Positions 31,065-36,627 of a stretch of 64,000 nucleotides of DNA are shown here, piece by piece. The position numbers and the translations under genes were made by a program. The notes under the pieces are model-generated. The model did not search any database and was not told where the DNA came from. It saw only the letters and a list, made by a program, of their open reading frames with translations. The DNA is from Planctomycetota bacterium. Its GTDB lineage: Bacteria; Planctomycetota; UBA8108; SXIK01. Location: NCBI GenBank assembly GCA_965223265.1, contig OZ244999.1, forward strand, positions 64,001 through 128,000, written 5' to 3'. Each line of letters opens with the position of its first letter. Position 1 is the first letter of the stretch.

Positions 31065-32525
31065 ATGATCGATCGAAGAAGTTTCCTTTGGCAGAGCGGT
31101 GGCGGATTGGGTGGCATCGCACTCTCGTCGATGCTCGGCGCGACGAAGCTCGAAGCGGGTGCAGCCAAGCACGAGAAGCCAGCGCACATACAGCACCACC
31201 CGGCCAAAGCGAAGCGTGTGGTGCAGCTCTTCATGTCGGGTGCCGCGAGTCACGTTGATCTGTTCGACTACAAGCCGCGTCTGATCCGCGACCATGGCAA
31301 GAAATGGGACCCTGGCGAGAAGGTTGAGCTCTTCCAGAATGGACTCGGCCACACGTTCGCGTCGCCGTGGCAGTGGCAGCGCTACGGCAAGTGTGGCAAG
31401 CACCTCACGGAGATCGCGTCGCCGCTCGGCGACTGCGTCGACGATATCGCGTTCGTCCACAACGTCGTCGGCAAGACGGGTGTTCACAGCCAGGCGACTT
31501 ATCTTCATGCCACTGGCTTTCAGCGCCCTGGGTTTCCGGGTGTCGGCTGCTGGGTGAGCTACGCGCTTGGTCATATGAACGCGGATCTACCGACGTTCGT
31601 CGTCCTCCCGGATCACCGTGGTTTTGCTTCCAATGGCCCGAAGAACTGGGGGCCGGCCTTCTTACCAGCGCAGCATCAAGGCACGATTCTGCGCCCGGGC
31701 ACTGAGCGACCGATTCCGGATCTTTTTCCGACTCCAGGCGGGTTCGTTAGCCGCGAGAGTGACCGTGAGGCGTTCTCGATTTTGAAGCGGCTTAATCGAA
31801 GGCACCAGGCGCAGCGCAGTGGCGATTCACGGCTGTCGGCGCGGATCCAGTCATACGAACTTGCGGCCCGCCTCCAGCTGAGCGCCACGGAGGCACTTGA
31901 TATCTCGCAGGAGCCGGCGTACGTGTTGGCAAAGTATGGCCTTGATCACGGCCGCGTGCATTTCGGCGATCGGATCAATCCTGTCGAAGAGACCGATTAC
32001 TTTGGACGTAAGTGTCTGGTTGCGCGCCGTCTGCTCGAGCGTGGTGTACGTTTTGTGCAGATCTGGATGGGTAACGACAACAGCCATCCCCGGCGCAATT
32101 GGGATTCGCATGAGTACATCGAGCGTGACCACGGGCCACTCGGTATCGGTATGGCACGCGGCGCAGCAGCGCTGATTTCGGACCTCAAGGAGCGCGGCAT
32201 GCTCGACGACACGATTGTGCACTGGACGACGGAGTTCGGGCGCATGCCGTGCGCGCAGGGCTCGAAGGGGCGCGATCACAACCCGTTCGCCTTCACGAAC
32301 TGGCTCGCCGGTGGCGGCATTCGGGGCGGCGTGAGCTACGGGCCAAGCGACGAGTGGGGTTACAAGCCGCTCGACCGCGACAAACCAACGATGGTGCACG
32401 ACGTCCACGCGACGATGCTGCACCTCCTCGGCATCGATCACGAGCGCCTGACGATGCGTCACAACGGCATCGACCGCCGCCTCACGGACGTCCACGGACA
32501 CGTGATCCGCGATCTCATCGCGTAA
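31065..32525 (+). CDS. DUF1501 domain protein (Tat-like signal)
   Basis: DRRSFL, AKRVVQLFMSG, TEFGRMP, GRDHNP, RLTDVHG. Confidence 0.92.
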   Translation: MIDRRSFLWQSGGGLGGIALSSMLGATKLEAGAAKHEKPAHIQHHPAKAKRVVQLFMSGAASHVDLFDYKPRLIRDHGKKWDPGEKVELFQNGLGHTFASPWQWQRYGKCGKHLTEIASPLGDCVDDIAFVHNVVGKTGVHSQATYLHATGFQRPGFPGVGCWVSYALGHMNADLPTFVVLPDHRGFASNGPKNWGPAFLPAQHQGTILRPGTERPIPDLFPTPGGFVSRESDREAFSILKRLNRRHQAQRSGDSRLSARIQSYELAARLQLSATEALDISQEPAYVLAKYGLDHGRVHFGDRINPVEETDYFGRKCLVARRLLERGVRFVQIWMGNDNSHPRRNWDSHEYIERDHGPLGIGMARGAAALISDLKERGMLDDTIVHWTTEFGRMPCAQGSKGRDHNPFAFTNWLAGGGIRGGVSYGPSDEWGYKPLDRDKPTMVHDVHATMLHLLGIDHERLTMRHNGIDRRLTDVHGHVIRDLIA

Positions 32526-32856
32526 CGCTTAGTCGCGCAGAGCGACTTGTGCGTGGGGATGGAACGAAGCTTGGCAAACTTGTGCACCATGACATCGTCG
32601 GTGGGACATACCCACACGAGTTTGCCGGAGATCAATAGGCGGAAGCGTGGAATCGTTTTTCGCCAAGATCTAAACTCGAGTTCAAGGAAGCCGCTTCGCG
32701 GCAGGCCCGGTTCGTTCAGGCGTTCTGGGTGACGATCGCCGGCCGCCTCGGGCCACCGGTGTGCTCGCTCTGCGGCCCGTTCGATGAGGCGTAAAGGCGT
32801 CGAGGCGTCGATGATGCTCTTTCTGCAGAAAGCAACCTCTCAGAAAGGAGCACGCT

Positions 32857-33765
32857 ATGACGCCTCTTCGCCAAAAGTTTCTCCAGGATCTGGAACTTGC
32901 CGGCCTCGCCGACGGTACCTGCAGGGTCTACGTTTGGGCCGTCGGGCAGCTGGCGAAACACTATCACCAGTCTCCCGATACGCTCTCGGAAACTCAAGTC
33001 CGCGACTATCTTTTCCACCTCAGGCACGAGCGTCAGTTCGCTATCGGGTCCTTGAAAATCGCCTACAGCGCTTTGAGATTTTTCTTCAGACGCACGGTGC
33101 CGCGCGACTGGAAGACGCTGGAGGATTTGCGAACGCCGAAGGAATCCAAGCTGCCAGACGTCCTCAGCGTCGAAGAGGTTCACGAGATCATCGCGGCGAC
33201 CTGCAGCCAGCAGTGGCGCACCTGCTTCTGGATGATCTACTCCCTTGGCCTGAGGATCTCTGAGGGCATCTCGCTCGAAGTGGGAGATGTCGACGCGGCA
33301 CGCTCTTTCGTGCACGTTCGTGGCGGCAAGGGTGCCGCTGACCGCTATGTGCCGCTTCCCCCCGATACTCTCGAAGCGCTGCGCCGCTACTGGAAGACGC
33401 ATCGCAACCCGCGACTTCTTTTCCCCGCCCGCGGCCGCGGGGACAAGCAGGGACGATCGGCCACGCAGCCCGTGTCGAGGAAGACAGCTCAGGCAGCGTT
33501 GCGTCGCGTCGCCACGCAGCTTGGCATCAAGAAACGCGTTTCGCCCCACACTCTGCGCCACAGCTATGCGACACACTTACTCGAGGCTGGTGTCAACCTC
33601 CGTGTTATCCAGAAGTACCTCGGCCACAGGTCGCTCAAGGCTACGTCGATCTACCTGCACCTTACACGTGATGGCGAAGAGCAGGCCCACGCGACGATCA
33701 ACGCGCTCATGGTACGCCCTCGCTCAGAGGAGGGCAAAGCGGCGAGGACGAACGCCGGCCAATAG
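32857..33765 (+). CDS. Site-specific tyrosine recombinase with N-terminal SAM-like domain
   Basis: LGLRISE (R), GGKG (K), HTLRH (HxxR), LGH, TSIY (Y); AAAGGAG RBS. Confidence 0.93.
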   Translation: MTPLRQKFLQDLELAGLADGTCRVYVWAVGQLAKHYHQSPDTLSETQVRDYLFHLRHERQFAIGSLKIAYSALRFFFRRTVPRDWKTLEDLRTPKESKLPDVLSVEEVHEIIAATCSQQWRTCFWMIYSLGLRISEGISLEVGDVDAARSFVHVRGGKGAADRYVPLPPDTLEALRRYWKTHRNPRLLFPARGRGDKQGRSATQPVSRKTAQAALRRVATQLGIKKRVSPHTLRHSYATHLLEAGVNLRVIQKYLGHRSLKATSIYLHLTRDGEEQAHATINALMVRPRSEEGKAARTNAGQ

Positions 33766-33771
33766 CGCACC

Positions 33772-34902
33772 GTGGCGTCGCTTGCGGAGATTTTCACGCG
33801 CTATGGCGAGGAGTATCTGGAGTGTCACGGTTCCAGCGTGCCTCTGCAGCACCGTCGTGTCCTGGCGCTGCTGAGCGCCTGTGGCACTGGCGATCTGGGT
33901 TACGTGCGCTGGCGCTGCGAGAGCTGCGCTCGCTCTCACCGGACGCCCCGCTCGTGCGGCAACCGCCATTGTCCGGGCTGTCAGTCCTCCAAGAACGTGC
34001 GCTGGCTCGCCGAGCAATTACAGCATCGACTCGAGGTGCCCTACTTTCTCCTTACATTCACTCTGCCCGCAACGCTACGACCCTTCGTGCGCTCGCAGCA
34101 GCGTGCCTGCTACCGGGCGCTCTTTCGCGCCGCCGCTGAATCGCTTCAGAAGCTCGCACGCGATCCACGCTTTCTCGGTGCGGCGCGCCTTGGCTTCACC
34201 GCGGTTCTGCACACTTGGGGACGGGCGTTGGCATATCACCCGCACCTGCACGTGTTGGTGCCGGCCGGCGGCTTGAGCGACGATGGTGCGAGCTGGATCA
34301 CCTCGCGCCCCGACTTTCTCGTGCCGGTCAAGGCGCTGTCGAAGATCTTTCGCGCCAAATTCCGCCACGAGCTGCAGCGGGCTGGTCTTCTCAAGGACAT
34401 TGCGCCTGCGGTGTGGACAGAGAACTTCGTCACCGACTCGCGCGCCGTCGGTGACGGCGAGTCGACACTCACGTATCTATCACGCTACGTCTTTCGCGTA
34501 GCGATCTCCAATGCCCGCATCGTCTCCTGCGACGATGGTCGCGTTCGCTTTCGCTGGAAGAAGTCGGGCAGTCGGCGGTGGCGGACCATGGAGCTCGATG
34601 CTCTGGAGTTCATCCGCCGCTTCCTCCAGCACGTCCTACCTCGGGGGCTACAGAAGGTGCGTCACTACGGATTCCTCAGTCCGCAAAGCGCCGTCTCCCT
34701 CCACGAGGTGCGAGTCTTTGTCGCTAGAGTGAACCCTCCCGCCGACGGCGCACAGATTCATTCCGATGCGAACGGAGCCAGGGCGGCGCCATCGACGACG
34801 ACGGACAGTCCCACCGAACACCCCTTCTGCTCGTGCTGCGGGGGCCGGCTACATGTCATTGCGATCGTCTTTCATCGCGTCGGTTTCCGCGACTCCCGGT
34901 AG
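33772..34902 (+). CDS. IS91-family Y2/HUH transposase with zinc-binding domain
   Basis: CESC...SCGNRHCPGC, HTWG...HPHLH (HUH), YLSRY (Y2), FLQHVLP...VRHYG. Confidence 0.93.
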   Translation: MASLAEIFTRYGEEYLECHGSSVPLQHRRVLALLSACGTGDLGYVRWRCESCARSHRTPRSCGNRHCPGCQSSKNVRWLAEQLQHRLEVPYFLLTFTLPATLRPFVRSQQRACYRALFRAAAESLQKLARDPRFLGAARLGFTAVLHTWGRALAYHPHLHVLVPAGGLSDDGASWITSRPDFLVPVKALSKIFRAKFRHELQRAGLLKDIAPAVWTENFVTDSRAVGDGESTLTYLSRYVFRVAISNARIVSCDDGRVRFRWKKSGSRRWRTMELDALEFIRRFLQHVLPRGLQKVRHYGFLSPQSAVSLHEVRVFVARVNPPADGAQIHSDANGARAAPSTTTDSPTEHPFCSCCGGRLHVIAIVFHRVGFRDSR

Positions 34903-35194
34903 AAAGACACCGTGAACACTCTCCCACCGACCGACCCACTGCGCCCGAAAACCCGCCATGCCAACGGCGGGGCGCCCCCGGTCTGCTCCCACAGTGACCA
35001 GCGCGACTGCCAACGCGAGATTCGGTGCGCTCAGCACGTCGCAGACACCGTTCACGCGGTTGATTCCGCTCCTGGGGCTCCCTCGCGTGAGCCTTATCGC
35101 CGCTGCCTCTCCCTCTGACCTCCCCGTCAAATCGAAGCGTTTCCCATCACGTCCGACGGTCGCTCCTGCGGCCAACGAGGAGCCGCGAGGCTCC

Positions 35195-35363
35195 TTGAAC
35201 TCAGGATTTGGACTCGGCTTCGCTCGCCCAAATCCTCATCCAGTTGAACTCAGGATTTGGACTCGGCTTCGCTCGCCCAAATCCTCATCCAGTTTCGCCC
35301 AAATCCTCATCCAGTTGAACTCAGGATTTGGACTCGGCTTCGCTCGCCCAAATCCTCATCCAG
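35195..35363. repeat. Tandem 49-bp hairpin repeat: 3 identical copies plus a 22-bp partial
   Basis: TTGAACTCAGGATTTGGACTCGGCTTCGCTCGCCCAAATCCTCATCCAG at 35195, 35244 and 35315; partial at 35293-35314. Confidence 0.95.
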
Positions 35364-35619
35364 TTTGGCCATTTCGCGCCGGCCTGGCCGGACGAGTTTC
35401 GCGGGAATTCAACGGCCCTTTCGACTTTTTCGTACCCTGAGAACCCTTGTGCATGTTTAAAAACTCCTGTCCGGCCCTTCGGGGAACTCCAGGAGGGCCG
35501 ATGCCCGCGCCCGTCCTCCGCCACGACCCGAGCGGGATCGCGCCCGAGTCGCTCCTTGGCCTCGACGCTCCTGGCGTTCCCAGGCTCGACGCGAAATGGC
35601 CAAACTCGAGCTAAAGCCA

Positions 35620-36627
35620 TCAAGGCTCAATCGCCACCCACTGCGCTGTTTGCCGACTCTCGAGCATCGCTAGGTTCACACGTAGCGTTTGCAGGCCTTC
35701 GGCCAACGTACAGCGCACGTCGCCTTTGCCCTCAAGCGCATCGAGGAAGACGTTGGCCTGGCGTATGAAGCCGTCGTCGCGCTCTGCAGATGCTGTCGCC
35801 TCGACGTTCCACTCACCGCCCGGCTCCGTGATCGACAGCCAGCGCTGGCGGTGCGACTCGAGCCGAACCGTGCCGTGCTCACAGTTGACCGTGATCGTCG
35901 ACTCGTTCGGCGCTTGAAATTGGTTGAGGGCGAACGAGCTCATGACGCCGCTTTGATGCCGCGCGATCGCGTGGACGACATCCTCGACTTCGACGCCGTC
36001 GAGCACCTTGTGCGCGGCGTCGGCGGTGACTCGCGTGATCGGTCCCACCAGCCACTCGACGGCGTTGACGTGATGCGTGAGCGCATCTTGGATGGCTCCG
36101 CCGCCATGTTCGTGGCGCGTGTAGTAGATTTCGCGGTAAGCCGGGCGGTACGTCGGAAAGTTTTGGCCCGACACCGAGACGACTTCAATCGGCTGACCAA
36201 ACCGCCCGGACAGCACAGCTTCGCGCAGTGATTCGATCAGTTCGATCGAGCGGAGTATGTAGGCGACCGCTACCGTCAAGCCTCTTTCTCGCACCAGCGC
36301 CTCAAGCTCTCGAAGGCCTTGCAAGCTTGTCGACAGCGGCTTTTCGATCAGCAGGTGGATGCCCGAGCGTGCCAGGCGCGTCGCTACCTCGATGTGGAGG
36401 TGAGCCGGTACCGCGACCACTGCTGCGTCGAAGGCGTGATGCTCCAACGCTGTCTCGAGATCATTGTAGGCGCCAACCAGAGGGTACCGCGATGAGACAG
36501 CTTGACACTTCTCGGCGTCCAGCTCGCAGATGGCGACTTCCGTTCTCTGCGTCGCCAAGAAACAGCGGGCGTGGCGCTCGCCAATCGAGCCTGCCCCGAT
36601 CACCAAGACGCGCGTGAGTTGTGCCAT
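35620..36627 (-). CDS. Gfo/Idh/MocA family oxidoreductase
   Basis: VIGAGSIG, IEKP, GGGAIQDALTH. Confidence 0.88.
   Translation of the reverse strand: MAQLTRVLVIGAGSIGERHARCFLATQRTEVAICELDAEKCQAVSSRYPLVGAYNDLETALEHHAFDAAVVAVPAHLHIEVATRLARSGIHLLIEKPLSTSLQGLRELEALVRERGLTVAVAYILRSIELIESLREAVLSGRFGQPIEVVSVSGQNFPTYRPAYREIYYTRHEHGGGAIQDALTHHVNAVEWLVGPITRVTADAAHKVLDGVEVEDVVHAIARHQSGVMSSFALNQFQAPNESTITVNCEHGTVRLESHRQRWLSITEPGGEWNVEATASAERDDGFIRQANVFLDALEGKGDVRCTLAEGLQTLRVNLAMLESRQTAQWVAIEP

Follow-up and report, generated by a model that had tools for sequence, protein, structure and literature searches.

Which enzyme brings one mobile element into the body of another, and what does it read in its target? 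The question is raised by a locus in 64,000 nucleotides of Planctomycetota DNA (the window: bases 64001–128000 of a single 9.18-Mb contig; coordinates refer to the window unless a genome position is given). There, a 2683-bp element of the IS91 family of insertion sequences (ISs), carrying its own tyrosine recombinase gene, sits inside a miniature inverted-repeat transposable element (MITE). In this genome, 9 of 9 insertions of the element, four full copies and five relics, lie at the same G|TT, each in a different MITE end. We favour, with some reservation, the explanation that the integron-like recombinase of the element (Y1) carries out the joining at G|TT, and that the element probably enters MITE tips as mimics of the core of integron attC sites.

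One position in the MITE ends

Excision of the insert in silico (32681–35363, + strand) leaves a MITE of 253 bp whose 21-bp inverted ends are perfect and which is flanked by a CTAAA duplication. The left 5-bp target-site duplication (32670–32674) has the same letters as the right one, which is read in the sequence at 35611–35615, and duplications of this length are typical of the MITE family. The left tip of the MITE reads CTCGAG (32675–32680, +), and the outer 8 nt of its left inverted repeat (CTCGAGTT, 32675–32682, +) are severed by the insert at a junction that recurs in all four full copies. The insert opens with TTCAAGG at 32681 and closes with CATCCAG at 35363. The remainder of the MITE (35364–35610, +) opens with TTTGGCCATTTCGCG at 35364 and ends in the right inverted repeat (35590–35610, +); the two 21-nt ends are perfect reverse complements of each other. 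Only AGTT is common to both junctions, and the restored site and about 40 intact MITEs have AGTT once, that is, the element made no target duplication. The crossover lies somewhere within AGTT and is written by convention as G|TT, which also sets the length of the element. The nested insertion into a pre-existing MITE had been proposed in the initial annotation, made from the letters of the window, and every letter quoted in it was found where it had been placed.

The three other full copies are 99.7–99.8% identical to the window copy over 2531–2566 nt. All four share the left junction CTCGAG|TTCAAGG, with flanks and duplications that differ from copy to copy. The right junction CATCCAG|TTTGGCC is found in the window copy and copy 3 only; that of copy 2 reads GGATTTGG|CCATTTCG, the terminal hairpin being shortened at a TTTGG microhomology, and that of copy 4 has six extra bases, CCAGTT. 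The MITEs that host the other three copies are 94%, 79% and 92% identical to the MITE in the window, and two full copies lie in a left-type and two in a right-type MITE end. Diverged hosts, near-identical elements and the use of both ends together argue for separate insertions into old MITEs. All five relics occupy the same G|TT: two solo 49-nt hairpin units with GTT on both sides (genome 1.90 and 2.96 Mb), left-end pieces of 23 nt (7.55 Mb) and 10 nt (5.44 Mb), and a right junction (6.40 Mb). A rearranged fragment at 5.93 Mb, outside any MITE, was not counted.

Targeting is site-specific. The GTT targeting suggested by the initial annotation thus extends from a single junction to all nine insertions in the genome, and relatives elsewhere also abut GTT. 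The genome contains 439 copies of GTTTGGCC, the 8-mer that MITE ends present at this position, and 117 of them (27%) are of MITE/IS-end type; were the 8-mer alone enough, the chance of 9 of 9 events falling at that type would be about 7e-6.

Copies 3 and 4 share a frameshift in the transposase gene and lie in inverted orientation (genome 3517852–3520417, −, and 3569328–3571893, +). The GC-skew maximum at 3,544,317, which probably marks the terminus, lies between them at a distance of about 24 kb from each, and recombination between the two copies would invert this part of the genome.

The MITE forms a genuine family: 47 near-full-length matches and 43 end pairs genome-wide put the pattern far beyond chance. 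The 47 matches, at 71–98% identity excluding self, were obtained with the 247-bp right part of the MITE, and the intact copies among them, as the initial annotation had foreseen, open with CTCGAGTTTGGCC and mostly carry 5-bp duplications. MITE ends with at most three mismatches comprise 75 left-type and 74 right-type sequences (about 149 genome-wide). Of the 43 end pairs of MITE size, 26 span exactly 253 bp and two are interrupted copies; among the 41 uninterrupted MITEs, the 5-bp duplications are identical in 29, differ at one position in five and at two or more in seven. The commonest duplications are TTAGC, CTAGC/GCTAG, CTAAC and TTGAC. A search of 20 relatives of the host for the MITE gave short weak matches only, in 3 genomes; among the genomes searched, the family is confined to this lineage.

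The probable parent of the MITE is a 1449-bp IS present in four copies that are 100% identical to one another, found by pairing the outer 14 nt of the MITE end and requiring identical 5-bp flanks; pairing of the 21-nt end, with at most three mismatches, found no partner 300–8000 bp away. The 443-amino-acid open reading frame (ORF) of the IS encodes a transposase of the IS701 family (NF049999, 348 bits, cut-off 170; DDE_5, 88.8 bits), so that an autonomous IS with the same terminal inverted repeat exists and the parent transposase, which the initial annotation had left without a family, can be assigned to IS701. Its four duplications (TTAAC, GCTAG, TTAGC and GCTAG) are of the same length and kind as those of the MITE, and the outer 15 of 15 nt are common to both. 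Beyond these terminal nucleotides no similarity between MITE and IS was found, and the interior of the MITE is not derived from the parent by deletion. Because only the terminal 15 nt are shared, we infer mobilization in trans rather than observe it.

Other repeats accompany this family. A second MITE subfamily has the same outer end followed by CATTCGGTGCACC (genome 3423638, 5736497, 6790766, 7794465 and others). Another, far more abundant MITE of about 180 bp (570 BLAST rows, about 400 covering the unit) has ends CAGCC(C/T)G..AAAAAGT and CTAA/CTAG-type flanks; the MITE studied here often adjoins it, as at genome 980202–980385, where it lies to the right of a copy of the studied MITE, and the two have a TA-rich target word in common. 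In at least three MITE copies, the first 10 nt of the end have given way to a third repeat of about 215 nt (genome 1898513–1898755, 3517438–3517680, 5912899–5913141 and 3423843–3424085), which lies 3 nt from the site used by the recombinase element. ARAGORN finds no tRNA in this repeat, and a tRNA-like identity was rejected; the MITE tip may be the target of yet another element.

The window locus lies between two convergent genes, a DUF1501 gene on the left (31065–32525, +) and a GFO/IDH/MocA oxidoreductase gene on the right (35620–36627, −). This setting, the length of about 253 bp, the 21-bp inverted ends and the CTAAA duplication agree to the base with the initial annotation. Its palindrome AAACTCGAGTTT in the restored target is real here but hinges on the CTAAA of this copy; other MITE copies carry CTAGC, TTAGC, CTAAC and so on instead, and have no such palindrome. 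The unique flank to the left of the MITE (32613–32680) contains CGAGTTTGCC, complementary to AAACTCG (the end of the duplication plus the MITE tip). It folds with a z-score of −2.5, a stability reached by 4 of 200 shuffles, and may represent a degenerate remnant of an old MITE end or a chance match. An Rfam search of 32000–36000 at E values up to 0.1 gave no match. Four public runs, none of them listed as RNA, contain the stretch, in each case only as contigs; neither an empty site nor a circle junction appeared there, which counts neither way since rare forms are lost from contigs.

Genes, ends and relatives of the element

The element carries two genes on the + strand. The first (32857–33765) encodes Y1, a tyrosine recombinase of 302 amino acids that resembles Xer proteins and integron integrases (Phage_integrase, 129 bits; SAM_4, 67 bits). 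Against the integron-integrase model TIGR02249 it scores 176 bits (cut-off 265) in a split match to model positions 5–181 and 228–312, which leaves positions 182–227 unmatched; Y1 is accordingly without the IntI-specific insertion, and it falls below every Xer and integron-integrase cut-off. The second gene (33772–34902) encodes Y2, a 376-amino-acid HUH-type transposase that matches the IS91-family model NF033538 with 368 bits (cut-off 125) over positions 2–354 of 356, as well as Y2_Tnp (201 bits) and Zn_Tnp_IS91 (85 bits). The element belongs to the IS91 family, and the recombinase gene is located inside the mobile unit itself.

Palindromes mark both ends of the element. At the left, the motif CAAGGAAGCC is followed by a small hairpin, GCCGC-TTC-GCGGC (32683–32705, +), and is an inverted match to an inner repeat on the right (35182–35200, +) that ends in CTTGAAC (35194–35200). 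Further right, and downstream of the Y2 gene, stand three 49-nt hairpin units (35197–35245, 35246–35294 and 35317–35365, +), each ending in CCAGTT; between the second and third lies a 22-nt partial unit that consists of the 3′ arm only (35295–35316, +), with GTT on both sides. The other element copies in the genome have one 49-nt unit, compared with three and a partial one in the window copy. The unit has a 9–10-bp stem and z-scores of −1.8 to −2.2. The joined ends of a circular form would read GTTCAAG, the exact reverse complement of CTTGAAC, so that a circle would complete a longer hairpin.

To see whether these ends follow a family rule, we collected relatives from genome assemblies (30 loci) and metagenomes (80 loci), with recombinases mostly 35–59% identical to the Y1 of the window (23% and 28% for the two weakest assembly loci). 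The left-end motif directly after GTT is conserved in relatives of many phyla: GTT precedes it in 64 of the 96 motif matches with a long ORF downstream, and the other 32 are spread over 20 trinucleotides. Two left-end types predominate, GTT|CAAG (47) and GTT|GAAC (18). In 27 relatives the sequence extends at least 2900 nt downstream; the expected region holds the reverse complement of the locus's own GTT-plus-four-base word in 19 of them and that of the other type's word in one. One locus with a GTT|CGAG left end has the matching CTCGAAC. The pairing across the joined ends thus co-varies. The right end of the relatives always consists of this 7-mer word (of the CTTGAAC type), a stem–loop–stem, a few bases and GTT, and one relative (L055) has two tandem hairpin units, like the window copy. 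The pairing boxes (..AAC/GTT..) and the crossover at G|TT appear, by sequence, to match the pattern of integron recombination sites. A Rhizobium plasmid relative has a different left-end motif and was excluded from the counts.

Among the 22 right flanks called by script, 15 start with A(G/T): AGGC (6), ATGC (3), AGAC (2), and AGCC, AGAT, AGGG and AGGT (1 each). The other seven include two mis-calls by the script (L005, visibly ATGG, and L076, visibly AGGT) and one tandem second unit. We take GTT-AGGC and GTT-ATGC to be forms of the integron core GTTRRRY. The MITE end, G|TTTGGCC, is one mismatch from the G|TTAGGCC core of the relatives.

The same element design occurs on plasmids. Photobacterium damselae plasmid pPHDD1 (L115, 81465–89283) carries an annotated integrase and IS91 transposase and ends in GTT|ATGCC, and RefSeq plasmid records annotate the same pair of recombinase and IS91 transposase. 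The pPHDD1 element adjoins a group II intron reverse transcriptase gene and a RelE/ParE toxin–antitoxin pair. Among relatives of the host, 40 genomes besides that of the window yielded a single recombinase match, 63% identical and located on a 3-kb contig; this contig contains no right end and no MITE-type flank, and its upstream flank is no stabler than shuffles. One Pirellulaceae metagenome-assembled genome has at least six copies of a related element, with pairs 0.6–1.4 kb apart (L003, 4853–7381 and 7981–10511; L004, 931–3483 and 4854–7250), each after a different hairpin that ends in GTT. One of these copies has a 13-nt word three times before its terminal hairpin.

Which enzyme joins, and what it reads

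The MITE, probably mobilized in trans by the IS701-family transposase, first settled between the convergent genes with its CTAAA duplication, and the 2683-bp element later entered G|TT eight bases into the left inverted repeat. Under the explanation that we favour, the element would behave like a self-mobilizing integron cassette. Y2 would copy it out as a circle, the joined ends of which would complete the hairpin CTTGAAC ... GTTCAAG, and Y1 would carry out strand exchange at G|TT, with this hairpin site as one partner and a target with a GTTRRRY-type core as the other. The usual target in relatives would be an attC-like hairpin followed by GTT-AGGC or GTT-ATGC; here the MITE end (GTTTGGCC) would stand in for attC sites as a one-mismatch core mimic. 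The solo 49-nt hairpins in two MITE ends could be excision leftovers or mini-insertions made by the same reaction. In this genome, 0 proteins reach the 265-bit TIGR02249 cut-off; the element's own Y1 gives the best matches. That canonical IS91 is promiscuous whereas this element is exact, and that Y1 falls in an integron-like group, favours the recombinase over Y2 as the integrating enzyme, as judged from sequence comparison.

Several observations weigh against this explanation. The genome holds 322 other copies of GTTTGGCC, 47 of GTTAGGCC and 41 of GTTATGCC with no detected element, so something beyond the 8-mer must be read; extra sequence context and foldability are not separable here because all MITE ends have both. 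The MITE core has a T where the relatives mostly have an A, and the targets of the relatives look attC-like by their core and by hairpins seen by eye. Their upstream flanks beat all 200 shuffles in 5 of 20 cases, and about 7 of 20 show no hairpin; several more show long imperfect hairpins. Of the GTT and hairpin bias that the initial annotation had expected among other recombinase–Y2 insertions, the GTT part is borne out by the 64 of 96 motif matches given above, and an upstream hairpin is not universal. The hairpin units of the element are themselves of modest stability, 7–12 of 200 shuffles folding as well. The window copy alone looks fully intact: the Y2 gene is frameshifted in copies 3 and 4 (in collapsed contigs one extra T stands behind 34189), and copy 2 has, besides its shortened hairpin, an altered Y1 C terminus. 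The ends also suit the canonical IS91 scheme, and the assignment of the integrating enzyme is provisional.

That scheme is the most serious rival, although we regard it as doubtful: Y2 alone would integrate the element, and the tyrosine recombinase would do another job, for example, multimer resolution. Rolling-circle copying would start at the hairpin end downstream of the transposase gene, corresponding to oriIS, and stop at the opposite end, where the small hairpin plus CTTGAAC would correspond to terIS; the single-stranded circle would then insert beside a short word, xAAC, which reads GTTx on the opposite strand. The position of the hairpins, downstream of the Y2 gene, agrees with this, both boundaries contain GTTC and CTTG, and premature termination at the unit boundary TTCAAC could yield the solo 49-nt units. 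The lack of a duplication, the GTT-containing word, the oriIS palindromes and the terIS palindrome of IS91 elements, as set out in the accessible text of PMC13181058, all match the ends of this element. By the same text, however, canonical IS91 needs just a tetranucleotide and has many sites, whereas this element uses one position in 9 of 9 cases. The constant pairing with an integron-integrase-like recombinase and the GTT-AGGC targets in relatives likewise point to the recombinase as the origin of the specificity. As for the tetranucleotide beside the oriIS end, the target supplies GTT plus T and becomes GTTC only with the first base of the element, and in relatives it is GTT plus A.

The initial annotation had proposed a different role for structure, in which the recombinase reads a folded single-stranded MITE whose paired ends set AAC opposite GTT, as in attC; we consider this unlikely. 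The intact MITE does fold very stably as single-stranded DNA (−77.2 kcal/mol, z −7.9, 0 of 200 shuffles as good), with its 21-bp ends paired, but any element with inverted ends would fold strongly. The GTTTGGCC copies that were used all have a complementary partner nearby (9 of 9, compared with 27% of such 8-mers); sequence context, CTCGA on one side and ATTTCGCG on the other, accounts for the 9 of 9 equally well. Relatives often lie beside hairpins and the element's own end is a hairpin, yet the polarity is inverted, the hairpin of the relatives lying 5′ of G|TT on the coding strand of the element and the partner end of the MITE about 240 nt 3′ of it. Nor is there a replication-strand bias: with strands assigned by GC skew (origin near 7.96 Mb, terminus near 3.54 Mb), the top strand of the element is lagging in six events and leading in three. 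One solo unit sits in a MITE that now has no right half, although that half may have been lost later. The simpler reading is that GTTTGGC in the MITE end is one mismatch from the GTTAGGC of relatives. Recognition of paired MITE ends is thus disfavoured by its geometry, by the six against three strands and by the simpler core mimicry, and a single-strand hairpin mechanism would be geometrically awkward. The related suggestion that the element uses these repeats as safe harbours fares better: the roughly 149 MITE ends available would be dispersed, harmless attachment sites, although the part that invokes hairpin recognition is not supported as it was put. The upstream flanks of two copies in this genome fold somewhat better than shuffles (z −2.5 and −2.0); as a target signal we gave these folds no weight, for the flanks are unrelated and their stems set no AAC against the crossover GTT.

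Targeting would not be needed if a single ancestral insertion had been followed by movement of MITE and passenger as a composite, driven by the IS701-family transposase. Each composite is indeed flanked by MITE-type duplications, such as the CTAAA at both ends in the window. The host MITEs nevertheless differ by 6–21% and the elements by about 0.3%, a divergence that contradicts composite transposition. In addition, two copies lie in right-type and two in left-type ends, the left MITE end is broken after 8 nt, which deprives the transposase of an intact end, and relatives in other phyla have the same GTT junction without this MITE. We rejected this history as highly improbable.

Known systems and what the locus means

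A dispersed non-coding repeat as a harmless landing site has a precedent in IS1397, which homes to clusters of repetitive extragenic palindromic (REP) sequences and bacterial interspersed mosaic elements (BIMEs). That IS uses a DDE transposase with target duplication and thus differs from the present element in enzyme and duplication as well as in target structure. IS91 elements with an upstream tyrosine recombinase gene have the same gene pair and order as the window element. The accessible part of one study (10.1101/542381) places recombinases found in IS91 that are without the IntI-specific insertion in an ‘Integron-like’ subgroup, and the window Y1 resembles them in this respect. A second study reports, in its accessible text, 245 IS91–XerD couples in 15 phyla (PMC9208149). 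We found no target rule and no MITE target for IS91 elements with a recombinase in the searchable literature (subscription journals and the ISfinder/TnPedia texts were outside reach). The gene pair is already known, and the MITE-end target appears to be new.

The accessible text of PMC13181058 describes for the IS91 family insertion at a CTTG or GTTC target tetranucleotide with no target duplication, subterminal palindromes at oriIS with one palindrome beside the terIS cleavage site, and single- and double-stranded circles that join both ends. Compared with canonical IS91, IS801 and IS1294 as given there, the window element is alike in the lack of a duplication, the GTT-containing junction word, the subterminal palindromes and the Y2 HUH transposase. 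Those elements differ in having neither a tyrosine recombinase nor tandem hairpin units and in accepting any CTTG/GTTC site.

Integron cassettes and their attC sites share with the element the G|TT crossover, a hairpin site that integration divides, its last bases becoming the start of the inserted unit, 7-nt complementarity between boxes, and the occurrence of empty, hairpin-only units. The window unit, unlike a cassette, carries its own recombinase and a rolling-circle transposase, and its recombinase has no IntI-specific domain; neither an attI platform nor a cassette promoter came to light, although no search aimed at either was made. Integration by IntI at non-classical genomic attG sites (Loot et al. 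2024, as cited in the accessible text of PMC12901181) is likewise the use of a non-attC genomic site with a GTT core. Specialists on attC, namely IS1111-attC elements and class C-attC group II introns, are described in the accessible text of PMC9229058, which also records an IS91-like element, ISShvi3, adjoining an attC. They are similarly parasites of structured recombination sites but use a DEDD transposase or a reverse transcriptase, and the target used here is a MITE instead of an attC.

Three layers of mobile DNA are legible base by base in this genome: an IS701-family transposase, a MITE in about 75 places and an element that uses the tips of the MITE. They form a natural experiment on the target needs of an integron-type recombinase that has no IntI domain, with about 149 near-identical candidate sites, nine of them used, beside hundreds of unused look-alike 8-mers. 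The attC-targeting habit of IS91 elements with a recombinase would thereby extend to a genome with no detected integron integrase, and the locus suggests a simple and testable system in which the reading of sequence by such enzymes could be told from the reading of folded DNA. It is possible, and we propose it only tentatively, that the element, once at home in integron attC sites, has switched to an unrelated MITE, the ends of which happen to mimic the GTTRRRY core. If so, attC-type recombination would be able to colonize a genome with no detected integron integrase, seeding free-standing 49-nt attC-like hairpins that may be raw material for new cassette arrays.

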